Program-made: the position numbers and the translations under genes | Shown: positions 11,255-64,000 of the stretch, piece after piece | Numbering within the stretch: the stretch's first letter is position 1 | Layout: the number at the start of each line of letters is the position of its first letter | Source of the DNA: a phage | Reading direction: 5' to 3' (one strand) | Sequence record: PQ374922.1 | DNA: 64,000 nt | The notes under the pieces: generated by a model | Told to the model about the DNA's origin: nothing | The model's input: only the letters and a program-made list of their open reading frames with translations | Database searches by the model: none

Positions 11255-12127
11255 ATGACAACTACATTTTCCAAGAACGTGAATCTGAATCTGGCTTTCG
11301 GTAATGCAAAGGGCGACGTCACATCGCCCGACTTTGGTAAGATCCGCAATCAGGCGAAACTGGTGCTGGAAGAAACCCGTGAACTGCTGGAAGCGGCGTA
11401 TTTCGACCACGAGGTGAAAATTGAGTTCACTGCATCTCCGCGAGTCCTGAAAGAACCCGTTGTTGTCGACATCAAAGACATTATGCGCCAGATCATGGAT
11501 GCTCAGGGCGACATCACAACAGTCAACGACGGCGTGGCTCATATTGCTGGTTTCGACGGTGACGAATGCCTACAGCGCGTGTATGCCTCTAACATGAGCA
11601 AGTTCATCCGTAATGAAGGTGAAGTTGTGCCAGCACTGGATTACTACTACAACAAAGGATTCCCACGCGAAAGTCTACGCATCGAAGGGGAATTCCCTCA
11701 GGCGTGCATCAAAGTGGTAGACACCATCACCGTCGACGGCAAAGAATACCCGGCTGGCAAGTTCCTGAAGAACATGGCAACCTTCAAAGAGCCTGACTTC
11801 TCTGATATGTTGACCGCCGAGCCTAAGCGCCAGATCACCGAAATCATTCTGACAGGTACGGCTACCCCAGGTCGACTCGGATGCAACGAACACGCTGGTG
11901 TTGCCTACGCACCGTTCGATTTTATTGACGAGATCGTGGGATACACCAAGATGGGCTTCCAGGCGTTCTCTGGCGAAACAGTCGAGAGCTACATTCCCGT
12001 GTTTGTTTTCAATGAAGACAACTTCCCAACTCTACCGTTGATCTGGGGTGAATGGAAAGCCAACGTCCGTATCTATGTGGCCAGCCCAGTGCAATCATCT
12101 ATCACCCAACTGACCCGTATCGATTAA
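11255..12127 (+). CDS. hypothetical protein (290 aa)
   Basis: Occupies the slot where T4 has DNA polymerase; optimal codon usage; no polymerase motifs. Confidence 0.6.
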   Translation: MTTTFSKNVNLNLAFGNAKGDVTSPDFGKIRNQAKLVLEETRELLEAAYFDHEVKIEFTASPRVLKEPVVVDIKDIMRQIMDAQGDITTVNDGVAHIAGFDGDECLQRVYASNMSKFIRNEGEVVPALDYYYNKGFPRESLRIEGEFPQACIKVVDTITVDGKEYPAGKFLKNMATFKEPDFSDMLTAEPKRQITEIILTGTATPGRLGCNEHAGVAYAPFDFIDEIVGYTKMGFQAFSGETVESYIPVFVFNEDNFPTLPLIWGEWKANVRIYVASPVQSSITQLTRID

Positions 12128-12195: not shown

Positions 12196-13416
12196 ATGAA
12201 AGATAAAGCCCTGGACGTCCCGTACTGCGGTGTCCGTGAAGAAAAGATAAAGTCGGCCAAACCGGTTCTCAGTCCGACCCATACCTGCCTGTCTTACGAA
12301 TGGATGCGCGATCGTTATCAGATCCACGTCAAGAAGGACGTCCAGCGCCTTCCTGCTCCTTGGACTGATAATCCCATATTACGGCAGGTCAAGTTCTGTA
12401 ACGTCCGGAGAGAGCACGACAGGCAGTCTCTCAACCTGATCAACAACATCGTCAACAACGATGCTCTGGGTATGGCCGACAAGATGTTCAACTGCGTGTT
12501 GTTCCGCATGTTCAACCTCTGGGATCCAATCCAGGCTATCGGCGGCGCGATGACGATCAAAGAATTCGCCGAGATCAACCTCGATGCAACCCGCGAACGA
12601 CTTAAGAAGTTCGAGGCCGACGGCGGTAAGGTATTCACCAATGCCTTCAACACGGGCGGCCTGAAACAATGCCTGGCTTTCCCTGAGATGGTTGTCAACC
12701 ACAAGGAGCAGCGCTTCGGTGGGATGATGGTGAATCTGATCTGTAAAGATGGTTCAACCCAGAACATGGATTATAAAGAAGCCAAGGCGATAGCCGAAGC
12801 AGAACCGGACTTCTACACCATCGAAGGTTGGGAACCGTACATGCCAATGCGTGTCATCCGCTCCCTGAAGGCATTCGTCAACAAGTATCCAAATTACTTC
12901 CATGACCTGCTGCGCCTTGGTACTCCTTTGGAAGTATACCAGCGCATGTACGACGACATCGAAGGGCTTGGTCCATTCCTGGCCTATCAGATCTGGGTAG
13001 ACTTCACTTACATTCCTGAATATCCTTTCAGTGAGAACCACTTCACGGTTGCTGGACCAGGCTGTCGCGCAGGGATCGACCTGATGTTCCAGGACAAAGA
13101 TGGCATGACGCATGAAGAATGCATCTTCTGGTTGCGGGACAATCAGGACGCGGTTTATGGCCCTCTTGGGTATAACAGGGAAGAATTTTGGTCTGCGGAA
13201 GAGCCTTGGGATCAGTGTATGAATGTGATGAGCATCGAGAATATGGCATGTGAATTGTCGAAATATACTCGTTGTGTAGAGGCCATACAGCAAGGTAAAA
13301 AACCGCGCGGGAAGGTTGGATATGACGGCGGTGGGGAATACAAAAAGCGCTGTGATGAAGTCGTGCTCAAACGTGGTTCCGTCAATTTGCTGGACCGTTT
13401 GAAGAAACCTGAATAA
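12196..13416 (+). CDS. hypothetical protein (406 aa), candidate nucleic-acid modification enzyme
   Basis: Long ORF after terminator-promoter hairpin; no motif confidently recognised. Confidence 0.6.
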   Translation: MKDKALDVPYCGVREEKIKSAKPVLSPTHTCLSYEWMRDRYQIHVKKDVQRLPAPWTDNPILRQVKFCNVRREHDRQSLNLINNIVNNDALGMADKMFNCVLFRMFNLWDPIQAIGGAMTIKEFAEINLDATRERLKKFEADGGKVFTNAFNTGGLKQCLAFPEMVVNHKEQRFGGMMVNLICKDGSTQNMDYKEAKAIAEAEPDFYTIEGWEPYMPMRVIRSLKAFVNKYPNYFHDLLRLGTPLEVYQRMYDDIEGLGPFLAYQIWVDFTYIPEYPFSENHFTVAGPGCRAGIDLMFQDKDGMTHEECIFWLRDNQDAVYGPLGYNREEFWSAEEPWDQCMNVMSIENMACELSKYTRCVEAIQQGKKPRGKVGYDGGGEYKKRCDEVVLKRGSVNLLDRLKKPE

Positions 13417-17062: not shown

Positions 17063-17917
17063 ATGTTTCGTTTGAAATTGAACGACCAAGATGTGTTCTA
17101 CAAACACTTCACCTTCCCAGGTGGTGAGGAACATATCAAGATTCAAAAGTCTGGTATCCCTATCGGCCACGTTCAGAACGTGGCGATTGATGCTCACATC
17201 AAATCATCGGCTGACTTCATTGAGCTGGCGCTTCTGGTAAACGCCGTTCGTGGTCTGGGTAACGTGGACCGTCTGACGACATTCCATGCGTATATCCCTT
17301 ACTTCCCGTATGCTCGCCAGGACCGCCATTGTGACTTCGGTGAGCCTCTGTCTGTGAAGTGGGCGGCTGAGTTCATCAATAGCATGAACTTTGACCGCGT
17401 GGCGATCAAAGATCCTCACAGCCATGTTGTGTCTTCTCTGATCAACAACGTCCATGTTGTCCCGCAAGATTACATCGTGCGTCAGTATCTGGGCTGGTTC
17501 ATCCGTGGGAACAACGCTGTGTTGGTAGCCCCTGACGGCGGCGCGGCTAAGAAGACCGAAGCCCTCAGTCTGTCGTTGGACGGTGTTCCTGTTGTCTACG
17601 GTCACAAGAACCGTGACACCAAGACTGGTGAGATCATTGGGGTGAGTATTACGAACCCTGAACTGATCAAAGACCGCTATCTGGTGGTGGTCGATGATAT
17701 CTGCGACGGTGGGCGCACGTTCGTTGAGTTAGGCAAAGAGCTTCAGAAGCACAAGCCTAAGCACATGACGCTCTTCGTTACCCATGGCATCTTCAGCAAA
17801 GGTCTCTCTGTTTTCGACGGGATCTATGATGCTGTGTATGCCGACACTGTCTGGTGGGAGAACATCACCGCCGACGGGCTTCCTTTCAAAACTGAAAATA
17901 CAGGACGTGTAAAATGA
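17063..17917 (+). CDS. ribose-phosphate pyrophosphokinase (PRPP synthetase) family; Prs or ADP-ribose pyrophosphokinase (Adps)-like
   Basis: IPYFPYARQDR and PRPP-binding VVVDDICDGGRTF motifs; 284 aa, shorter than cellular Prs. Confidence 0.85.
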   Translation: MFRLKLNDQDVFYKHFTFPGGEEHIKIQKSGIPIGHVQNVAIDAHIKSSADFIELALLVNAVRGLGNVDRLTTFHAYIPYFPYARQDRHCDFGEPLSVKWAAEFINSMNFDRVAIKDPHSHVVSSLINNVHVVPQDYIVRQYLGWFIRGNNAVLVAPDGGAAKKTEALSLSLDGVPVVYGHKNRDTKTGEIIGVSITNPELIKDRYLVVVDDICDGGRTFVELGKELQKHKPKHMTLFVTHGIFSKGLSVFDGIYDAVYADTVWWENITADGLPFKTENTGRVK

Positions 17918-19578
17918 GCATGCGCCACTTAGACCCAATCCATGCGATCGACTTCTACAAATCGGGGCACATCTATCAGTTCCCTGAAGGCAGTGAGCTG
18001 GTGTTCTCCAACGGAACTCCGCGCTCTAACAAACTGTTCAACTCTCACCTGCCGAAGAACGGCGTGGTGGTCTGGGGCATCCAGGGCTTCATGACCTGGT
18101 TCCACGAACTGTTTGACGAAGCATTCTTCCAGCGCCCGAAGGCCAAGGTGCTGAAGAAGTATGCCCGTCGCATGAACAAAGTCCTGGGTCCAGGCCGCGT
18201 CGGCACAGAGCATATTGAAGCCCTGCATGACCTCGGCTACCTGCCTATCGAAGTCCGTGCGCTGCCTGAAGGCACCATGTGTCCGTATGGCGTTCCGGTG
18301 TATGTGATGTTCAATACCCTGCCGGAGTTCTACTGGCTGACCAACTATCTGGAGACTGTGTTCAGCTCTGAGATCTGGAAGCCGATGACGAACGCCACCA
18401 TAGCTCTGCATTACAAGGCACTGATGGTGAAAGCTGCCCTCGCTACGGGAGTATCACCAGACCATTGGTTCATCGACTACCAAGGTCACGACTTCTCCTT
18501 CCGTGGTATGAGCGGGTGGCATGACGCCGCGTCTTCCGGTTCCGGTCATCTGGTGTTCTTCAAAGGCACCGACACCAACCCTGCCCTGGACTTCGTAGAA
18601 GAGTATTATGGCGCAGACATCGACGAAGACTATGTCGTTGCTGGGTCGGTTGCCGCAACGGAACATGCGGTGATGTGTATGGGCACGAAGGATGGTGAAT
18701 TCGAAACCTTCCGCCGCCTGGTGCAGGACGTGTATCCTGATGGCATCGTCAGCATCGTGTCTGATGCGTGGGATTACTGGCAGGTCATCGACGACTATCT
18801 GCCTCGCCTGAAAGACATTATCATGGCGCGCAATGGTAAAGTCGTGATCCGCCCCGACTCGGGCGACCCTGTACACATCGTCGGCGGCTACCGCATCGAG
18901 GGGTTCAAAGACCGCGCTACGCTGAACATCAGCGGCGTGTCTAGCAGCACCGAAGTTATCCACATCGAAGAGACGAACACCTATCACCTGATCACAGGCG
19001 AAGGCACGATCAACTCTCTGATGGCAGATGACCGTAATATCATCAGCCGTTCAGAAGCGGTCGGCTCTATCCAGCGCCTGTGGGAGATCTTTGGTGGCAC
19101 CCAGACTGAAACTGGGCACTTCCTGTTGGATGAGCACATCGGCCTGATCTACGGTGATTCTATCACCCTGGCGCGTGAAGACCAGATCTTTAGCCGTCTG
19201 GCTGACCGGAACTTCGCTTCCATCAACGTGGTGTTCGGTATCGGTTCCTACACCTACCAGATGAACACCCGTGACAGTACTGGCACAGCAGTGAAAGCCA
19301 CGGCTGGTAAAGTGAACGGTGAATTCCGTGAGATCTTCAAAGAGCCGAAGACCGATAAAGGCGGGACTAAAAAGTCTGCGCGTGGTTTCCTTAAAGTCAT
19401 TAAAGACCCTCAGGGTAAACTAGTGTTGGTTGACGGTATCACTTTTGATCAGGTGCAAGACGCCGACAACCAGCACCAGCTGGTGTATCGTGATGGCGAG
19501 TTCTTCAATACTCAAACACTGGAAGATGCGCGTGTTCGTGCTGCTCCTCTGGTGACGGAACTGGCATCACAAATCTGA
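17914..19578 (+). CDS. nicotinamide phosphoribosyltransferase family (NadV/NAMPT or Namat-like)
   Basis: 554-aa ORF translationally coupled to Prs-like gene (ATGA overlap); recognised as NAMPT-type phosphoribosyltransferase by overall sequence pattern. Confidence 0.8.
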   Translation: MSMRHLDPIHAIDFYKSGHIYQFPEGSELVFSNGTPRSNKLFNSHLPKNGVVVWGIQGFMTWFHELFDEAFFQRPKAKVLKKYARRMNKVLGPGRVGTEHIEALHDLGYLPIEVRALPEGTMCPYGVPVYVMFNTLPEFYWLTNYLETVFSSEIWKPMTNATIALHYKALMVKAALATGVSPDHWFIDYQGHDFSFRGMSGWHDAASSGSGHLVFFKGTDTNPALDFVEEYYGADIDEDYVVAGSVAATEHAVMCMGTKDGEFETFRRLVQDVYPDGIVSIVSDAWDYWQVIDDYLPRLKDIIMARNGKVVIRPDSGDPVHIVGGYRIEGFKDRATLNISGVSSSTEVIHIEETNTYHLITGEGTINSLMADDRNIISRSEAVGSIQRLWEIFGGTQTETGHFLLDEHIGLIYGDSITLAREDQIFSRLADRNFASINVVFGIGSYTYQMNTRDSTGTAVKATAGKVNGEFREIFKEPKTDKGGTKKSARGFLKVIKDPQGKLVLVDGITFDQVQDADNQHQLVYRDGEFFNTQTLEDARVRAAPLVTELASQI

Positions 19579-38089: not shown

Positions 38090-41008
38090 ATGTCAAAGCT
38101 AAGTTTCCTCCAGTTCATGCAGGAAAGAGATCAGTTGGACGAAGCGTTCAACTCCGCTCCGTATGAGCTGACCATGGGCAAGAAGAACGCAGGCGATGTG
38201 TTCTTCACCTTCATCGACGAAGATGAAAAGGAATACCGTATTCAGTTCTATACCCCTCAGGGGCTGGGTAAGAGTGTTCGTCAGGTTTTCATCGGCCAGA
38301 AGCGCGGCTCCGTCTATCCTGACGCCATCGCTCGCTTCAAGAACCCAATGCGCGTTATCGCTTCCATGATCGAAGCGACCAAACAATTCATGGCGACTCC
38401 TCTGGGCAAGACCATCGATGGCTTTGCTGTCAACTTCTCTAAGAAAGCCCTGGATCGCGGTATGACCCTGATTCCTAAGATCATCCGCCAGTCCGGCCTG
38501 AAGCAGAAACTGAACGTCATGGACCTGACCTACGCGCCTGTTCCTGACCGTGGTTATGTGTGGCTAGTTCGTAAGGGTAAAGATCCGGCTCAGGTATTCG
38601 ACGGTCCGAAGATGCAGGGTATCACCTGGGATGATCCAGACAAAGTCGGTGACGTTCCGGTTCAGAACAATACTCCGGATGTGGGAGTTGGGGCTGGTTC
38701 TTCTGAAATCGAAGTCAACCGCGAGTGGTACAACAGCTCGGACACTGGTCTGGAGTTGAAGAGCGGGCGAGACCCGATTCGTGGAAATTACGTCCGTCTG
38801 ATAAGCGGTTCGAAAGAAGTAGCCACATTCTATGGTTATGATTTTGACAAATATCCAGACGGGACTGAGGTATCTTGGAATATGAAGCGCGGCTTCACCA
38901 ACCAAGACTTGGTCGGTGCGTCCATGACCAAACAGAAGAAAGGTATGTACGATCAGTACACTTTCAAGAAAGGTACTCAGATAATTCTGGTGGTGGACGT
39001 TGACACCAGCAATGACACCAGCAATGACACCAGCAATGGCAACGGATGGAAATTAACTTCAAACGGGGATCAGCCCATGTTGTTATGGGCTGGTAAGGAG
39101 AGAGGCCGCACGAACACGGCAAATATCGCTCCCCACTACAATGAGCCGGGCGTGTATGTTGGCGCATACATGAATGAGAAACCTGTGCGTGGGCAAAGTG
39201 CTGATTTCATTGCTCGTCAGTTGAAATTACCGCAAGTCCCTATCAATATCCTGAATGATTTCACCATGGCGTCTACAAAATTTTGGAAAGGTTCTCAAAA
39301 CAGTTCAGACAGAAATAACCCAGCCAACATTATCGGTTCTGGAACTGCTGTTATTGATGCCAAACGACTTGGTGCTCGAGAAGTAAACGTTGAACGATTC
39401 AAAAACGGTGTTCGCATGCGTTCTCAAAACGGTGACGTCGACATCAGTATTTCTGACCCAGACTTTTCAAATGCAGCAAGTGCGACTGATGCTGCTACTG
39501 CCTCTGTTGTGGTCAAGAACGGGCGTTACGAAGGTGCCATCAATTCAAAGCGCAAGATTGCCCGCACCTCGTACGAGCAGGGTACTGAATGGGATATCAT
39601 CGGTGTCAACGGGGAAACCCTTGTCTCTATCAAGTTGAACAAAGTGTCTAAATCCGCATCGGATTCGACCGAGGGTGCAACCAGTGTTGATCAATTACGT
39701 GACAGTGGTTTCATCGCTCGTGTTCTGGGTATCATTGATACCAACGTTGGGCTGGACACTTCTATTCTTCCTGGTGAAAACATCCGTCGCGTGGGCGCTG
39801 GTCGTTACACGACGGCAGGCGGGTTGGTTATCGTTGTCAACTTCACAAACGTCCTCGCTGGTTTCGTTCAATACTCAGTTTTCAGCGAAATTGCTGAAGA
39901 GGAGAACGTGGCCAAAGGTAGCGCCCGTGACGTCGCCAATGCGGTAATTGCGTCCATCTTTGAGGTTGCCAAGACCCAGTACACTGGGAAATGGGAAATT
40001 AGCGCAGTGCCAACAAGCGCTCCATATCCTATCAAAGCCATTCGCCGTTCTCGGGGCTGGGGTTATGTGGAAACCGCAAACTGGACTCTGACAGTGTCCG
40101 ACGCTGTCCTGAATCGTGTGAAGCCAGGGAAAACTGCCCTACTGGAACTCATCAAAGAACCTCCGCGTGGCAAGCACCCGCTGGAAATCATCCCAGAGAA
40201 GGGCGACAAGACCCTGATGCTGAAAGATCGTATTACCGGGGCCATCTATGGTTCTATCGACCTGAATGCCCAAGGCGCTGATCTGGTCAACTCTGGAACC
40301 CTGAAGATGCCACGCAACGCCATGGTGTTTGGTGAGACTGTCAACGGTATGTCCATTCGGTGGGATGTCAATTTCCCCGAAACGGGAAAATACGCCGGTG
40401 CTTCTATGATAACCAACGTGACCTATTACTACGACAAAGGTAAAGTTGCATTCACCCCAATTGTCTCTCAGAAAGGGCGTACCCTGAACAATCCGAAGAC
40501 ATATGAACTTCCTTTAAACAAAGATATGGTCCAGAGTGTGATTGATGAGATTTCATCAAAAATGGAATATCTTTCCAGAAACCTCCAACAGTTGAAAAGT
40601 CAGTCATACAACCCAAACCAGGTGTTCTTGAACGATATAACCATCACGGATAAAGGTGAAGTGATTTGGAATGATTACAACTTGTCTGACGGCAAAGTTA
40701 CACAAATTATGCTGTCCATGATAAGCGCAGAAAATAAACGTCTAGAGAAAGTGGCAAACAAGCCGGATATCAATATCACATTGCCAAAGAAACAAGCTGA
40801 AGTGATAGAATTTATAAACCGGATGATCGACATTGATCTCACCCCTTATGTGAGAACCCCCAAAAAACGTGATGTGGTATTATTTGACTCTTCTGAATTG
40901 TCGATGAACCAACTCAACAACATAGAACGCCTGGGAAGAGAAACAGGAAAATGGTCTCTTCAGTCAAACGGCGGTATGGGTCATGCACTATTTCTGAATG
41001 TTTGGTGA
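38090..41008 (+). CDS. large hypothetical protein (972 aa) with internal SNDT tandem repeat
   Basis: Uninterrupted 2.9-kb ORF; 12-bp x3 tandem repeat at 39002-39037; 3' ~500 nt markedly AT-richer. Confidence 0.7.
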   Translation: MSKLSFLQFMQERDQLDEAFNSAPYELTMGKKNAGDVFFTFIDEDEKEYRIQFYTPQGLGKSVRQVFIGQKRGSVYPDAIARFKNPMRVIASMIEATKQFMATPLGKTIDGFAVNFSKKALDRGMTLIPKIIRQSGLKQKLNVMDLTYAPVPDRGYVWLVRKGKDPAQVFDGPKMQGITWDDPDKVGDVPVQNNTPDVGVGAGSSEIEVNREWYNSSDTGLELKSGRDPIRGNYVRLISGSKEVATFYGYDFDKYPDGTEVSWNMKRGFTNQDLVGASMTKQKKGMYDQYTFKKGTQIILVVDVDTSNDTSNDTSNGNGWKLTSNGDQPMLLWAGKERGRTNTANIAPHYNEPGVYVGAYMNEKPVRGQSADFIARQLKLPQVPINILNDFTMASTKFWKGSQNSSDRNNPANIIGSGTAVIDAKRLGAREVNVERFKNGVRMRSQNGDVDISISDPDFSNAASATDAATASVVVKNGRYEGAINSKRKIARTSYEQGTEWDIIGVNGETLVSIKLNKVSKSASDSTEGATSVDQLRDSGFIARVLGIIDTNVGLDTSILPGENIRRVGAGRYTTAGGLVIVVNFTNVLAGFVQYSVFSEIAEEENVAKGSARDVANAVIASIFEVAKTQYTGKWEISAVPTSAPYPIKAIRRSRGWGYVETANWTLTVSDAVLNRVKPGKTALLELIKEPPRGKHPLEIIPEKGDKTLMLKDRITGAIYGSIDLNAQGADLVNSGTLKMPRNAMVFGETVNGMSIRWDVNFPETGKYAGASMITNVTYYYDKGKVAFTPIVSQKGRTLNNPKTYELPLNKDMVQSVIDEISSKMEYLSRNLQQLKSQSYNPNQVFLNDITITDKGEVIWNDYNLSDGKVTQIMLSMISAENKRLEKVANKPDINITLPKKQAEVIEFINRMIDIDLTPYVRTPKKRDVVLFDSSELSMNQLNNIERLGRETGKWSLQSNGGMGHALFLNVW
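39002..39037 (+). repeat. in-frame tandem repeat, 12-bp unit gacaccagcaat x3 (encodes DTSN x3)
   Basis: Three perfect copies inside the 972-aa ORF. Confidence 0.9.
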
Positions 41009-57908: not shown

Positions 57909-58931
57909 ATGGGTAATTTATTCGATCGTCTGAAAGCATCCCGTGGCCAGCAAACTGAAGCTATGCAGGCGCGTCTTGCACAGCAAGGCCAGAAGTCCGG
58001 TTTCCAGAAGGATCCTCGCATCTGGAAATGGACTTGGAACAAAGATGGTATCTCTGAGAACATCATCCGCTTCCTGCCAGTCCCGCTGGTAGACCTCAAG
58101 GCACAGGAAGAAGGAACGATCGATAAAGATCAGATCCTTACCCCTTGTGCCATGATCATGAAGCATCAGTTCCAGGGACCTGGTGGCTGGTACATTGAGA
58201 ACTCACCTCAGACGTTCGGCAACGACGATCCGGTGCGCGACCATGACCGTCCGCTGTGGGCGCAGCAGAAAGAAACGAACGACGAAAAGCTGAAGGACAT
58301 CCTGAAGAAACGTCTACCCGACACCAAATACTACGCTAACATTCTGGTGATCAAAGATGTCAACGTACCGGAAAACAACGGCAAGGTCTTCCTGCTGGAA
58401 TTTGGTAACGCCATCAAGAAAATCCTGGATCAGGCGCAGAATCCTAAGTTCCCAACCGACCCTAAATTCGATCCGTTCGATCTGTGGGAAGGTGCCAACC
58501 TGAACCTGAAGCTCTTTGGCGAGCAGAAGAAGTTTGGGAACTGGGAAGGTCTGGTGGCAAACTTCAGTAAGGTGGTGTGGGAGAACCCTGCCCCGCTGAG
58601 TGATGACGAAGCGTATATGGAAGACGTCTGGTCTCGCGAGCACAGCCTGTTTGAATTCTTCAATCCGGCTAACTTCAAAGACTACGACTCCCTGGAAAAG
58701 CGCCTGCGCAAAGTTCTGGCAATCCCTGATGACCAGCCTCTGGTTGAAGGTGGTGCAGCCACGATGGCTCATGCTCCTAGCACCCAGACCACACATCAGC
58801 CAACTGCTCAAGACAGCCTGAAACAGCAACAGGCCGCGCCGTCGCAGGCTCAGACTCAGACTCAGTCTCAACCGAATGCCAGAAACACGGCTTCCATTGA
58901 CGAATTCGAGCAGTATCTCAAGTCTAACTGA
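57909..58931 (+). CDS. single-stranded DNA-binding protein, T4 gp32-like
   Basis: IRFLPVP and KYYANILVIKD match T4 gp32 (IRFLP, KYYVNILVVKD); acidic Gln/Ser-rich C-terminal tail. Confidence 0.85.
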   Translation: MGNLFDRLKASRGQQTEAMQARLAQQGQKSGFQKDPRIWKWTWNKDGISENIIRFLPVPLVDLKAQEEGTIDKDQILTPCAMIMKHQFQGPGGWYIENSPQTFGNDDPVRDHDRPLWAQQKETNDEKLKDILKKRLPDTKYYANILVIKDVNVPENNGKVFLLEFGNAIKKILDQAQNPKFPTDPKFDPFDLWEGANLNLKLFGEQKKFGNWEGLVANFSKVVWENPAPLSDDEAYMEDVWSREHSLFEFFNPANFKDYDSLEKRLRKVLAIPDDQPLVEGGAATMAHAPSTQTTHQPTAQDSLKQQQAAPSQAQTQTQSQPNARNTASIDEFEQYLKSN

Positions 58932-58936
58932 TCAAC

Positions 58937-58965
58937 AAGCCATCTTCGGATGGCTTTTTATTTTC
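58937..58965 (+). terminator. rho-independent terminator between convergent genes (possibly bidirectional)
   Basis: aagccatc-ttcg-gatggctt followed by tttattttcc; A-run on the other side. Confidence 0.7.
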
Positions 58966-59902
58966 CCATCACGTCTTGCAATATTCCCAACAGGCTTGTC
59001 TTCTCCGCCGCCGTCAGGTTATCGTTACCCATGATGTCACGAGAGATACCTACCGAGATGCGCTCGAAGTCCTGTATGCTTATCCCAGCCAGGTTGTTTA
59101 CAAGTTGGTCAAGCTGTTTGTAAGCCAGGAGAGCCTCTCCTGTGAAGTTCCCTTCTTTCAACTTGCGATAAAGCTGTCCAGCTTTTGAGGCCGCAGTTTC
59201 CCAGTCACCACTGGTAAGAGCGTCAGCAATGCCGAGAGGAAGAAAATCGCTGGAAAGGCTGCGTGTTTCATATTCTGTCTCCGAAAGCACTTTGTTGTAA
59301 GAGAAAGAAATGTTGTACTGGTTGAACTGGTCTGTGGCACCTTTATCTAGCTCAATAGAACTGAAATTTATTGGGTGAGCCTCGACGATGTAGACGCGGT
59401 GGACCACTTGATCTTCGGTGTCAAGCTGTTCAATGCATATGTCAGTCACGAAGTCTTCGTAATATCCCATTTTGGTGGTGTGTGGATCAAAGATCAGACT
59501 CTTCCACTTGTCCATCACAGACTTCTCATAATAGTCATTGGCTAATAAGAATGACAAGTCGAGGTCGACGTTGGACTTGTTGTTCGGCATCTTGATGTGA
59601 TTACCGTTGTTTGTCATTGGAGTGGTGTCGATACCAACCCCTGGCAATGAGGCAACCATACACATCATCTGAAGGGAACGGGACGTCTGGTTTGTCCCTC
59701 CAAAGAAAGCGTTTACAATACGGGCTGACTGCTTAAACAAGTCACCAAAAGATGAATTGGTTCTGTACGCCTTTCCGTCATTAGCCAGAGTGGCATTGGA
59801 GTCAAAGATCCCTGGTGGTAGAGGGATGGTCACTCTGAAGCGGTTCTTGCGCGACAAGCCCCGCTGTAATATCTGTGTGATAAAATTGCGATAGTCTTCC
59901 AC
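58958..59902 (-). CDS. putative virion structural protein (late gene)
   Basis: GTG start with GGAG RBS; exact TATAAATA 35-42 nt upstream on minus strand. Confidence 0.55.
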   Translation of the reverse strand: MEDYRNFITQILQRGLSRKNRFRVTIPLPPGIFDSNATLANDGKAYRTNSSFGDLFKQSARIVNAFFGGTNQTSRSLQMMCMVASLPGVGIDTTPMTNNGNHIKMPNNKSNVDLDLSFLLANDYYEKSVMDKWKSLIFDPHTTKMGYYEDFVTDICIEQLDTEDQVVHRVYIVEAHPINFSSIELDKGATDQFNQYNISFSYNKVLSETEYETRSLSSDFLPLGIADALTSGDWETAASKAGQLYRKLKEGNFTGEALLAYKQLDQLVNNLAGISIQDFERISVGISRDIMGNDNLTAAEKTSLLGILQDVMGK

Positions 59903-59936
59903 GGTGAGGACTCCACTTAAATAAAATAACTGTTAT

Positions 59937-59944
59937 TATTTATA
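59937..59944 (-). promoter_or_regulatory. T4-type late promoter core TATAAATA
   Basis: Exact TATAAATA on minus strand 35-42 nt upstream of structural-gene GTG start at 59902; phage encodes gp55-like sigma. Confidence 0.5.
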
Positions 59945-59955
59945 GGAGTTGACAA

Positions 59956-60660
59956 ATGGCAAAGAATGCAGCTGGCGAAGAAGATCCGTTGCTGTTTCCG
60001 GCCGAGATGGACGCCCCCGAGCTGGTCAAGCGTTACATCCGCAAGTACCGTCAACACTTCGGTCCAGAGGCGAAGCGTAACATCCGCCGTTCGCATGTGT
60101 GGTTCATGGAGCGTGTGTCTAAGGACGCCAACCTGAGTCCCAACCATATGAAACAGGCGTTTGCTGATCACAAACGTCCGGTACAAGGTGTGCGGTATAT
60201 AGTCGGGCGTATGTTCTATTTCAAATATGATGCTCTGACGAAGAATGAACTACCCTACTGGGATATGTACCCTCTGGTGTTCTTCTTCAACTTTGTCAAG
60301 GGTGATGGCATCACCTTTGGAGAGAAGGGTGTGACATACCTCTGGGGGCTCAACATGCACTACCTGCCACCGAAGCTCAGGCTGTTGGTGTTTGAGGATC
60401 TGATCAAGTTGCGTAACGAACGGGCATACCGCTCAAAGACGCGTCTGAAGCTCACCTGGGAAGCCCTGAAGCGCTTCGCCAACCATCCGCTGTACAATCA
60501 CTGTGTGAAGCTGTACCGTGCCGATCAGTTCCGTTCACAGCTTTACGAGATTGAGCCACAGTACTGGGAGATCGTTCTCTTCATGCGCACTGCCCGCTTC
60601 CAGAAACAGAGCCAGATGTCTGTGTGGAAAGATGCACGTCGTATGCATAAGAAGAAATAG
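59956..60660 (+). CDS. hypothetical protein (234 aa), probable late gene
   Basis: TAGGAG RBS; TTAAATAA element ~35 nt upstream. Confidence 0.55.
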   Translation: MAKNAAGEEDPLLFPAEMDAPELVKRYIRKYRQHFGPEAKRNIRRSHVWFMERVSKDANLSPNHMKQAFADHKRPVQGVRYIVGRMFYFKYDALTKNELPYWDMYPLVFFFNFVKGDGITFGEKGVTYLWGLNMHYLPPKLRLLVFEDLIKLRNERAYRSKTRLKLTWEALKRFANHPLYNHCVKLYRADQFRSQLYEIEPQYWEIVLFMRTARFQKQSQMSVWKDARRMHKKK

Positions 60661-60722
60661 TTCTATAACCCGTTCCGAGGGATAATTCGTGAACAGGTAA
60701 TCCTAAATGATGAGGCTATAAC

Positions 60723-61472
60723 ATGTCACAAATTTATCGTATGTTCGGGTTAGAGTTTACCCCAGCTCGCCTTGATATGAAACTCCCAAATTTTGAAAAG
60801 AGTGGATTCGAAGTCGGTTGTGTTCTGGGTTTCGATCGAAACGGCAGATTCGTTCGCGAACAAAATATTTTCGATGTTCTGGGTGTGAAACCGGACAGTG
60901 AAACAGCAATCCGCTTCGAAGAGGACATCCGTTTTGGTCATTCCGACCTGTACGATTATGTCCGTGATGTGATCGCTGGTTATGAACAAGCTAAAGCACA
61001 CATGAAGATGGCCACCGATGCATGCCTGAAACTGGCGCATTGTCTATACTTCTTTGGTCGCAAGCGTCAGAATCTCGATATGGTATTCCCATCGGAACTG
61101 CTTGAACGCTTCTCTGAAACCGAATTCCTGCTGAAGCAAGCCGACGGAGTTGCTGTCAAATCTAGTGAAGTATTCAAATACCCGATAAATCTGGTGTCTG
61201 GGCATCTGCTGGTAGGGCGTGATCAGGTCGACCTGGCGATTCATCCGGATATGGAGTATGATCAGAACTCCTGTCGTGCCATCCACAACTACGTAGGTGT
61301 CATTCTAGAAAACTTGTACTCAGCCATGGAAGAAGTGATGGCAGCAGAACAACAGGAAGAAGTGATTCGTCGTATCCGCGAAGATATCGAAGGGAAGGTG
61401 AAACAGGATGTTCTAGGGGAATATCCACCAGAGTATTTCCCTGAAGTTCCAAACTTCTACTTGTCCAAATAA
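60723..61472 (+). CDS. hypothetical protein (249 aa)
   Basis: Long ORF, no motif recognised. Confidence 0.55.
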   Translation: MSQIYRMFGLEFTPARLDMKLPNFEKSGFEVGCVLGFDRNGRFVREQNIFDVLGVKPDSETAIRFEEDIRFGHSDLYDYVRDVIAGYEQAKAHMKMATDACLKLAHCLYFFGRKRQNLDMVFPSELLERFSETEFLLKQADGVAVKSSEVFKYPINLVSGHLLVGRDQVDLAIHPDMEYDQNSCRAIHNYVGVILENLYSAMEEVMAAEQQEEVIRRIREDIEGKVKQDVLGEYPPEYFPEVPNFYLSK

Positions 61473-61492
61473 CTCCACTGTGAGAGGTGTGT

Positions 61493-61768
61493 ATGAAACG
61501 TTATCTGAAGCTGACGACTGTCCTTGAGTCGATCATAGAGTATTTCATCATGCAACACCTCCGCGCTGACAACATGCATTTAGACGGTTGCCTGACGTAT
61601 GACCACAAGATCATTGTCCATTCTGTTGAAGTGGTGGATGATGATCTGATGATTGCAAATGTAGAACACTGTCTGTTTGATGAGTCGGTTGATGCGTACT
61701 GCCAACCACGGTTCGCAAAAGTCGAGCTAACAAATTGTTGGCCGCCGGAAATGGTTTTTCTATATTGA
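61493..61768 (+). CDS. hypothetical protein (91 aa)
   Basis: GAGAGG RBS. Confidence 0.45.
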   Translation: MKRYLKLTTVLESIIEYFIMQHLRADNMHLDGCLTYDHKIIVHSVEVVDDDLMIANVEHCLFDESVDAYCQPRFAKVELTNCWPPEMVFLY

Positions 61769-61860
61769 CGTAGAAAGTTAATATTCACGCAAGTTCGCGC
61801 TCCGCTTGGTCGCGCACCTTATAACACTAAGGTGTTAACTTTCTTTTCAATAAAAAGTAG

Positions 61861-61889
61861 TTTACATCTATGAAAATGCAGTATATTAT
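61861..61889 (+). promoter_or_regulatory. sigma70-like early promoter TTTACA-N17-TATTAT
   Basis: Near-consensus hexamers with 17-nt spacer, AT-rich upstream including TTCAATAA, ~70 nt before gene 61958. Confidence 0.5.
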
Positions 61890-61957
61890 GTTCTCACTAC
61901 ACAGTCAGAACAACAATATGCCGCGGATACGGTCTTAATAACGAAAGGGTTTTTATT

Positions 61958-62794
61958 ATGTCATATATTCTTCATGTGGATTCTGGAACCAAAATTGAAA
62001 TTGAAGGCAAAGACGTTGCGGCTATCCAGGCTGAAATCAAAGAAGCAGGTCTGATCATCGGAAACGTTACCCTGCGCCGTATGGTTGAAGGTGTTCTTCA
62101 GGCTGCCAACGGCTTCGAACTGATTGAAGGTCTGAGCGCTGAAGAGAAGGAAGAAACTCAGCAGGCTCTGGCGCAAGCCCAAGAGCAAGCCCAAGCTGAA
62201 GTATCGCTGAAAGTCGCTGAAACTATTGATGCTGAAGCACCGATCTCTGCCGATGCATGTGAAGCCCCAGTGTCCGACGCCCCGGTAGACGCGGTTGAAG
62301 ATGCAGTCAACGCGGCGCTGGAAGAAGGTAATCAGCCGTCCGACGCGAAAATCGGTTCCTTGGCGTCTTCTATGCTGAAAGAAGCATCGAAGGGTAAGAC
62401 CCTGACCCCGCAGGCAGCGCTGGTAGAGCGTAAACGCCGTCACACCAAACGTGAGGAAATGGTTGACTTGGCTCGCGCTTCTAATCACGGTCCGGTCTTG
62501 GCGGCGATTGAAGCTGGTGTTGTCCCCGGCGTGTTCCTGAGCTACGTGAACCCAGACATGCGTTGGTTCCAGTTCCCGGTCACCGAACTGGCTAACCCTG
62601 AAAACCTTCACGCTCGCACCAATACGTATGTCGACGTTGCGCCTATCGTTTCCGGTGGCTGGGGCTTCAGTCTGTACGTGAACGGCAAGTCCTTCACCAA
62701 ACGTCAGAAGATCAAAGAGTCTGATGCTGAGTCTCTGGTTAAGGCGATCAATGAATGGCTTCCACAGGCTCTGGCTGAAGCGAAAGCTGTGTAA
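61958..62794 (+). CDS. hypothetical acidic protein (278 aa), probable early gene
   Basis: Sigma70-like promoter TTTACA-N17-TATTAT ~70 nt upstream; optimal codons; Glu/Ala/Gln-rich central region. Confidence 0.6.
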   Translation: MSYILHVDSGTKIEIEGKDVAAIQAEIKEAGLIIGNVTLRRMVEGVLQAANGFELIEGLSAEEKEETQQALAQAQEQAQAEVSLKVAETIDAEAPISADACEAPVSDAPVDAVEDAVNAALEEGNQPSDAKIGSLASSMLKEASKGKTLTPQAALVERKRRHTKREEMVDLARASNHGPVLAAIEAGVVPGVFLSYVNPDMRWFQFPVTELANPENLHARTNTYVDVAPIVSGGWGFSLYVNGKSFTKRQKIKESDAESLVKAINEWLPQALAEAKAV

Positions 62795-62824
62795 ATTTAA
62801 GTTCAGAAACTGTTCAAAAGATGA

Positions 62825-62858
62825 AGGGGCTGCTATAATAGCAGCTCCTTTTGTTTAT
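62825..62858 (+). terminator. terminator hairpin with TATAAT in loop
   Basis: ggggctgcta-taat-agcagctcc followed by ttttgtttatt. Confidence 0.55.
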
Positions 62859-62869
62859 TGGAGCAGTTT

Positions 62870-63529
62870 ATGTCCTACTCCCTGAAGGGGTTGATGAAGC
62901 GCCCCGTCCACACATTCTTTAAACCACCAGTCGTAAAGGGGATCTATCCAGCACGAGGGCAAATCTACTACGTCAAAGGCTCCAATGGTAGCGGTAAATC
63001 CACTGTACCGTCTCAGCTGGCGGAGAGGGATCCTCAGGCGTATGTCGTGACCCATAACGGCAAGGTAATGCTGACTGTCTGTCCTTCGTTCAACGTGGTC
63101 TGTATCGGTAAATATGACAAGTCGAAGTCCAAGGGGGTTGATTCCCTGAAGGACACTGAGCAGATGTTGTTCGCGTTGTCTATTGCTGACCAACCAGAAT
63201 ACTTGAAATATGATGTGATTTTCGAAGGTATCATTCCATCCACATTATTGAGTTCTTGGATCCCCCGCCTGACGCGCCCACCACGTGAATTGGTTGTGCT
63301 CTTTATGGACACTCCCCTTGAAACGTGTATCTCCCGCGTTAAATCACGTAACGGTGGTGTGGAATTCAATGAAAGTCTGGTGGTCGAGAAGTGGGAGAGA
63401 GTTCATGACCATCGTCAACGACATAAAGACTTGTTCCCTACGGTAGCTGCGGGTATGATGAAGTCTCACGGCCTAACGGTAGACCAGGCTGTGATGGCAT
63501 TCCTCTGTCGTGATTTTGGGAGTATCTGA
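62870..63529 (+). CDS. P-loop kinase (candidate nucleotide or 5-hydroxymethyl-pyrimidine DNA kinase)
   Basis: Walker A GSNGSGKST; GGAG RBS; coupled to downstream ThyA-family gene. Confidence 0.55.
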   Translation: MSYSLKGLMKRPVHTFFKPPVVKGIYPARGQIYYVKGSNGSGKSTVPSQLAERDPQAYVVTHNGKVMLTVCPSFNVVCIGKYDKSKSKGVDSLKDTEQMLFALSIADQPEYLKYDVIFEGIIPSTLLSSWIPRLTRPPRELVVLFMDTPLETCISRVKSRNGGVEFNESLVVEKWERVHDHRQRHKDLFPTVAAGMMKSHGLTVDQAVMAFLCRDFGSI

Positions 63530-64000
63530 TGGAAATCAAAGCAATTAACAACAATGACATGTTGAAGCAGGCTGTCTTGGCTATCCGTGAATTCGGGATC
63601 GAATCTGATCCTGGTAATGCTGAAATCAATACTGATAGCACCCGCTTCCTTGATGGTGTGACTATCACTGTTTCCGATATTCGTGACCGCTGGCTCTCCG
63701 TTGAAGGTCGCAACTCATCGGCTATCGCTGCCATCGGCGAGACCTTCTGGGTGTTGTCAGGTCGCAACGACATAAAGTTCCTGTCACGCGTATTGCCTCG
63801 CGCTGCTAACTTTTCGGATGATGGGGTAACATGGCGAGCTGCTTATGGTCCGCGTCTGTACGCCCATGGCCAGCTGGATAGCGTTATCAACCGCCTGCGC
63901 AAGAACCCAAACACTCGCCAGGCGTACCTCACTATTTATGATCCGGCTTTGGATTCGGATGCTGGTCTGGCGAAGTTCAGCGAGAGCGGCGAAGCGAAGA
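63529..64000 (+). CDS. thymidylate synthase family enzyme, divergent (candidate pyrimidine hydroxymethylase), 3'-truncated by window edge
   Basis: ETFWVLSGRND, AAYGPRL, GQLDSVINRLRKNPNTRQAYLTIYDP align with ThyA motifs but N-terminal region lacks canonical substrate-binding motif; ORF runs off window. Confidence 0.65.
   Translation, partial: MEIKAINNNDMLKQAVLAIREFGIESDPGNAEINTDSTRFLDGVTITVSDIRDRWLSVEGRNSSAIAAIGETFWVLSGRNDIKFLSRVLPRAANFSDDGVTWRAAYGPRLYAHGQLDSVINRLRKNPNTRQAYLTIYDPALDSDAGLAKFSESGEAK

Follow-up and report, generated by a model that had tools for sequence, protein, structure and literature searches.

The window analysed here is a stretch of 64,000 nucleotides of phage DNA (sequence record PQ374922.1), which ends in two overlapping genes, a P-loop kinase gene and a homolog of thymidylate synthase (ThyA) that is cut by the window edge. 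These translationally coupled genes very probably stand first in the operon for nucleotide modification of a ViI-like phage (Ackermannviridae, Aglimvirinae) and, judged from their sequences, would encode the DNA kinase for 5-hydroxymethyldeoxyuridine (5-hmdU), termed 5-HMUDK, and the dUMP hydroxymethylase of thymidine hypermodification. The pathway is proposed on the basis of homology, synteny and active-site residues, and its chemistry in this phage is predicted from them. A thymidine-hypermodification pathway had already been suggested by a first-pass annotation of the window, and both the family of the kinase and the residues of the ThyA homolog support that suggestion.

The kinase frame, the last complete open reading frame (ORF) of the window, runs on the plus strand from an ATG at 62870 to a TGA at 63527-63529 and is preceded by GGAG, resembling a ribosome-binding site (RBS), at 62861-62864. 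As the first-pass annotation had described, it carries the Walker A motif GSNGSGKST, and its stop overlaps the start of the ThyA-like gene, the two sharing one base (TGATG, with the second ATG at 63529-63531). The ThyA-like gene has its own Shine-Dalgarno-like GGGAG at 63518-63522, 6 nt 5' of the ATG, and its frame remains open to the window end; the 157 codons inside the window include the motifs ETFWVLSG (residues 71-78; 63739-63762) and RQAYLTIYDP (residues 130-139; 63916-63945), both as previously noted. The two ORFs are regarded as real rather than chance frames, because their proteins recur in 402 (kinase) and 1184 (ThyA-like protein) phage records and the genes are adjacent in all six of the examined genomic or metagenomic contigs encoding an identical kinase.

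Active site and family of the thymidylate synthase homolog

The catalytic half of the ThyA-like gene lies beyond the window edge, where the first-pass annotation could not follow it, and was taken from near-identical genomes, namely Escherichia phage YX22 (OR776998.1; Ackermannviridae, Aglimvirinae) and five metagenome contigs. In all six contigs with the identical kinase, the ThyA homolog is 348 aa long and overlaps the kinase stop, and the six proteins differ at no more than three positions, none of which is catalytic. It is followed by genes for a deoxynucleoside monophosphate (dNMP) kinase, a dUTPase_2 protein, an ACT-like protein and UvsX. The full-length protein matches PF00303 with 58 bits (cut-off 24.3), and the 157-aa fragment in the window, which stops before the catalytic Cys, scores 19.8 bits, below that cut-off. 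This Pfam thymidylate synthase profile aligns from residue 67 onward only, consistent with the divergent N-terminus remarked on earlier. The closest characterized system is that of Salmonella phage ViI, whose Vi01_060c was labelled a dUMP hydroxymethyltransferase ("dU hmt") that co-associates with 5-HMUDK (Lee et al. 2018; PMC5889632). The ThyA homolog is 77% identical to Vi01_060c over 341 aa and 88.5% identical over the 157 residues of the window; length, active-site residues and the overlap with the kinase stop are common to both, whereas divergence is noticeably greater in the C-terminal ~110 residues.

The active site was compared in an alignment with the enzymes of ViI, Pseudomonas phage M6 (M6-type) and Bacillus phage SPO1 (SPO1-type), T4 gp42 dCMP hydroxymethylase (dCH) and E. 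coli thymidylate synthase (EcTS). C163 corresponds to the nucleophile C146 of EcTS, and E71, Y106, R183/S184, D186 and H225/Y227 correspond to E58, Y94, R166/S167, D169 and H207/Y209, which serve general catalysis and binding. E71, Y106 and R130 are encoded inside the window, and D160, C163, R183/S184, D186, N195 and H225/Y227 beyond its edge. Two positions bear on the reaction and the substrate. The residue three before the nucleophile (Cys-3) is Asp160, within the motif D160-M-V-C163; it is Leu143 in EcTS, Asp145 in T4 dCH, and Asp in MilA and in the ViI, SPO1-type and M6-type enzymes. According to the ternary complex of T4 dCH, this Asp was proposed to activate the water molecule that adds to the exocyclic methylene, and it was put forward as a signature parting hydroxymethylases from synthases, with the D145N variant of T4 dCH being inactive (PMC6400193). 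At the pyrimidine-specificity position, Asn195 aligns with the Asn of EcTS (N177) and of the SPO1-type and M6-type enzymes, which points to a uracil nucleotide rather than a cytosine nucleotide, so that dUMP rather than dCMP would be the substrate. Based on these residues and on the family placement given below, we infer that the ThyA homolog acts as a dUMP hydroxymethylase and makes 5-hmdUMP.

An ordinary thymidylate synthase supplying dTMP for phage replication, as the gene is described in most GenBank/RefSeq records and in its PHROG families, would agree with the PF00303 match, with the retained nucleophile, phosphate-binding Arg/Ser, Asn195 and Asp186, and with the observation that most thymidines of ViI DNA remain T (PMC11721090). 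We consider this very unlikely. The protein falls short of all seven NCBIfam thymidylate synthase equivalog models (16-58 bits against cut-offs of 108-427), Leu143 of EcTS is replaced by Asp160, Trp80 falls in a gap and Trp83 is Phe, both of which shield the EcTS active site and cofactor, and the C-terminal tail of EcTS with Ile264, which shuts over the bound folate, is replaced by an unrelated domain of ~110 aa. Among solved structures, the hydroxymethylase MilA comes nearest (E=1.4e-17; best synthase 3.5e-9 in the PDB search), and in blastp the M6-type (9e-36) and SPO1-type (1e-32) enzymes stand ahead of E. coli ThyA (1e-13). Moreover, the constant neighbor of the gene, a 5-hmdU DNA kinase, would be left without a substrate.

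The first-pass annotation had offered a dUMP or a dCMP hydroxymethylase in place of ThyA; the former part stood and the latter did not. That the substrate of the protein is a cytosine nucleotide, so that it would resemble the dCMP hydroxymethylase T4 gp42 or the 5-hydroxy-dCMP synthase RB69 gp48, could be suggested by MilA being a CMP enzyme, but deserves almost no credit in view of Asn195 at the specificity position, which is Asp179 in T4 dCH (PMC6400193), of the absence of any blastp match to T4 gp42, which was compared by multiple alignment only, and of the retained Asp186, which excludes a 5-hydroxy-dCMP synthase since the D169N signature of those enzymes (PMC13326640) is absent.

The SPO1 gp29-type dUMP hydroxymethylase (an Okubovirus ortholog was compared) is 34% identical across the catalytic core and likewise has Asp at Cys-3, the uracil-specifying Asn, a small residue two before the catalytic Tyr (Tyr-2) and a long extra C-terminal domain. 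Unlike the pathway proposed here, SPO1-type phages leave 5-hmdU as such in their DNA, and to our knowledge no 5-HMUDK or transferase is known from them. T4 gp42 shares the fold, the Asp at Cys-3 and hydration of the exocyclic methylene instead of hydride transfer (PMC6400193), but it differs in having Ser94 at Tyr-2 (Ala104 here), a retained Trp (Trp82) and no long C-terminal domain, besides Asp179 in place of Asn195. E. coli ThyA has the fold and the catalytic equivalents listed above in common with the ThyA homolog, at 22% identity.

The P-loop kinase and its family

The kinase matches the Pfam family PF18748 (HMUDK_HMUD1, "5-hmdU DNA kinase") with E=5.9e-109 and 362.5 bits (cut-off 27), its residues 14-208 aligning to positions 1-195 of the 196 in the profile. 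It is 88% identical over all 219 residues to ViI Vi01_061c (YP_004327432; gp67 of Lee et al.), a PF18748 protein which occupies the same position in the gene order and is preceded by an identical hairpin and RBS. The Walker A, FEG, DTPLE and RNGG motifs are common to both kinases, and G37, N39-K43, T45, FEG118-120, DTPLE147-151, R156 and RNGG160-163 are invariant when the M6-type kinase is also considered. The differences from ViI gp67 amount to 27 substitutions and to lineage, ViI belonging to Cvivirinae and the present phage to Aglimvirinae, with a nearest relative hosted by E. coli. ViI gp67 moves the gamma-phosphate of ATP onto 5-hmdU in DNA in vitro, and 5-hmdU DNA kinase activity was demonstrated for ViI gp67, its paralog ViI gp243, M6 gp54, PhiW-14 gp37 and SP10 gp186 (PMC8989533). 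The partnership with a P-loop 5-hmdU DNA kinase, which the first-pass annotation had brought up by analogy, is thus borne out by family and by a syntenic ortholog. Profile, motifs, orthology and genomic association together support the assignment of the P-loop gene as a predicted 5-hmdU DNA kinase. Structure was less informative, as a PDB sequence search gave the nucleotide-binding domain of CFTR as the best match (E=0.0086, P-loop only) and no 5-HMUDK structure, and a single-sequence AlphaFold2 model (mean pLDDT 39.9, pTM 0.33) was too poor for a fold search.

Some records call the protein a "putative thymidylate kinase", and it has weak matches to phrog_761 thymidylate kinase (1.5e-6), AAA_33, Zeta_toxin and dNK, as would be expected of a mononucleotide (thymidylate or dNMP) kinase acting on free 5-hmdUMP instead of DNA. 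Such a role is highly improbable, because the dNK match is at noise level (E=0.064, 13 bits) against 362 bits for the HMUDK profile, the 88%-identical ViI gp67 acts on 5-hmdU within DNA (PMC8989533), and a separate dNMP kinase (phrog_139, 1.2e-47) is encoded two genes downstream. As for a small terminase subunit, the name given in many RefSeq records and by PHROG phrog_800 (E=2e-68), its likelihood is practically negligible: the Pfam search of the kinase gave no terminase match, a T4 gp16-type TerS (PF11053, phrog_735) adjoins TerL in YX22 (110720-111427) and in ViI, and phrog_800, with 511 positions, also matches the helical domain of the gp160-type protein and therefore models kinase-Pplase fusions, not terminases. 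The "terminase small subunit" label looks like a propagated annotation error.

In public records, the kinase is widely annotated as "terminase small subunit" (RefSeq, including NC_015296 Vi01_061c, and phrog_800), "thymidylate kinase" or "baseplate hub", and its annotated start in phage ZQ1 is an internal one, which shortens the gene from 660 bp to 525 bp.

Proposed pathway and its other genes

Before replication, Cys163 would attack C6 of dUMP, with methylene-tetrahydrofolate supplying the carbon. The exocyclic methylene intermediate would then be hydrated rather than reduced by hydride, by a water probably activated by Asp160, to give 5-hmdUMP and tetrahydrofolate (THF). The adjacent dNMP kinase, followed by the nucleoside diphosphate kinase of the host, could convert 5-hmdUMP to 5-hmdUTP, which the phage polymerase would incorporate. 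The steps after replication are assigned by homology to characterized enzymes: with ATP, 5-HMUDK would phosphorylate 5-hmdU in DNA on its hydroxymethyl group to the phosphomethyl derivative 5-PmdU, the gp247 ortholog, an amino-acid:DNA transferase, would swap the phosphate for serine, and the gp226 ortholog, a pyridoxal phosphate (PLP) decarboxylase, would yield 5-(2-aminoethoxy)methyl-dU (5-NeOmdU), which would render the DNA resistant to many restriction enzymes. The same order of hmdUMP synthesis, DNA phosphorylation and amino-acid transfer is found in phages of the M6/YuA type, whose kinase (gp54 in M6) and the hydroxymethylase encoded next to it (orthologs in PaSz-4) are 30% and 33% identical to those described here and have the same motifs. 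The genes of M6 are tightly clustered, and glycine and a radical-SAM isomerase lead to 5-(2-aminoethyl)deoxyuridine (5-NedU), whereas ViI-like phages have scattered genes and make 5-NeOmdU.

The five ViI proteins from which 5-NeOmdU synthesis was reconstituted (ViI gene list: PMC5889632) served as tblastn queries for the other genes of the pathway, and the orthologs are listed in Table 1. The transferase and decarboxylase are 90-92% identical to the ViI enzymes, and therefore the product is likely the same as in ViI.

Table 1. Features of the kinase-ThyA locus and predicted genes of the modification pathway, with the MazG-like neighbor of the gp160 ortholog.
Feature	Position	Strand	Basis
Predicted DNA kinase for 5-hmdU (5-HMUDK), ViI gp67 / YP_004327432 ortholog, 219 aa	62870..63529	+	PF18748; 88% identity; synteny
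Walker A / P-loop GSNGSGKST, residues 37-45	62978..63004	+	invariant in alignment: G37, N39-K43, T45
Putative dUMP hydroxymethylase gene, 5' 45% (157/348 codons), thymidylate-synthase fold	63529..64000	+	full-length gene of relatives; 77% identity to Vi01_060c
Terminator-like hairpin, 13-bp stem, then TTTTGTTT	62823..62851	+	hairpin scan; sits between upstream gene and kinase RBS
gp160 ortholog, aGPT-Pplase clade 1	12196..13416	+	82% identity over 407 aa; PF18723 HMUDK_hel E=3.7e-81
gp226 ortholog, PLP decarboxylase	YX22, outside window		92% identity
gp243 ortholog, kinase 2 (PF18747)	YX22, outside window		47% identity
gp247 ortholog, serine:DNA transferase (PF18724)	YX22, outside window		90% identity
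MazG-like nucleotide pyrophosphatase, Vi01_131c ortholog	11255..12127	+	59% identity; phrog_2144 E=6.6e-133; no Pfam match

Several points weigh against the assignment of this pathway. Ser/Thr at Tyr-2, the second element of the published hydroxymethylase signature, is not kept in the ThyA homolog, which has Ala104 at Tyr106-2; the residue is Gly in the ViI and M6-type enzymes and Ala in the SPO1-type enzyme. Since the SPO1-type enzyme lacks it too, Ser/Thr at this position seems, from these sequences, to be specific to cytosine enzymes and not defining for dUMP hydroxymethylases. The catalytic half was read from near-identical genomes, and YX22 has six mismatches to the last 5.1 kb of the window. 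The literature searched reported no direct assay of Vi01_060c, which carries its "dU hmt" label by homology, and no assayed enzyme from an Aglimvirinae phage. Finally, ~60% of the thymidines in ViI DNA stay unmodified.

The last point touches an alternative which we regard as unlikely, that the Aglimvirinae pathway ends otherwise than that of ViI, with a difference in the final base or in how far and in which sequence context it occurs, or that the gp160-type protein (12196-13416) regenerates thymine from 5-PmdU. Such regeneration would account for most T staying unmodified. No enzymatic role for a gp160-type protein was assigned in the literature searched. Its gene lies ~50 kb from the kinase and adjoins the gene for the MazG-like pyrophosphatase, which may shape the nucleotide pool.

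The gp243 ortholog of YX22 (OR776998.1 147435-149033; L008 21436-23034) is annotated as a 532-aa protein, and its kinase part is 47% identical to ViI gp243, far below the other pathway proteins. Its first ~235 residues are an in-frame GIY-YIG-type homing endonuclease (phrog_15209, 1.4e-131), and a new catalytic domain in the N-terminal extension of this second kinase was accordingly rejected.

A putative hairpin precedes the kinase, and its loop and stem include TATAAT (context 62818-62866). At the hairpin, a 47-nt stretch, AGATGAAGGGGCTGCTATAATAGCAGCTCCTTTTGTTTATTGGAGCA, is identical in ViI, whereas the flanking genes are just 56-88% identical at the protein level. Because it holds TATAAT, the hairpin may be terminator and promoter in one.

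Relation to other phages and meaning of the locus

By megablast, 61900-64000 is 100% identical to YX22, 96-98% identical to further phages of the YX22 group from E. coli, Enterobacter and Salmonella and ~89% identical to Shigella phage Ag3. Across the window, gene order is collinear with the reverse complement of ViI (Vi01) from ~97.6 kb to 37.7 kb. YX22 aligns to the first 25 kb (1-25000) in three pieces with 98.4% identity and to the last 5.1 kb (58870-64000) with six mismatches. YX22 itself was rejected as the exact source because of the lower identity of the first 25 kb, and the uneven match suggests that the window comes from a separate isolate close to YX22, or that it is a mosaic.

Some features elsewhere in these genomes were also observed. 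A 249-aa ORF at 60723-61472 is 29% identical to its positional counterpart Vi01_064c, with neighbors at 56-93%, and is fast-evolving. For a 972-aa ORF at 38090-41008, ViI orf00109 (799 aa) aligns to the first ~199 residues only (85% identity; tblastn, a single high-scoring pair), and a Pfam search with this ORF gave no match. At 17063-19578, a ribose-phosphate pyrophosphokinase (284 aa) adjoins a nicotinamide/nicotinate phosphoribosyltransferase (554 aa), an NAD+ salvage pair reported to be variably present among Agtrevirus phages. The TerL of YX22 (L007 10530-12740, 736 aa) has a sub-threshold match to Pfam Intein_splicing at residues 127-228 (28.8 bits, cut-off 35.8), which precedes the terminase ATPase domain. 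Scans of the whole window for tRNAs and Rfam families gave no matches.

The thymidine-hypermodification pathway of ViI-like phages has already been published, and the gene pair is ordinary for Ackermannviridae. Aravind and coworkers predicted the pathway, as cited in PMC5889632, and chemical and enzymatic demonstrations followed in 2018 and 2021. Measurements of 5-NeOmdU exist for ViI, CBA120 and phiHS2 (PMC5889632; bioRxiv 10.64898/2026.05.19.726188), the 2026 preprint reporting the base in a further coliphage of the Ackermannviridae that shares the gene set (bioRxiv 10.64898/2026.05.19.726188), and according to a 2024 review all modification genes are highly conserved across the family (PMC11721090). 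The sole small gap is direct chemistry for an Aglimvirinae phage, which was not found in the literature searched. The practical value of the locus is in annotation: many public records, RefSeq among them, wrongly name the kinase "terminase small subunit" or "thymidylate kinase" and the hydroxymethylase "thymidylate synthase". Users of this phage in therapy, cloning or sequencing should expect DNA with partial 5-NeOmdU substitution that resists many restriction enzymes.

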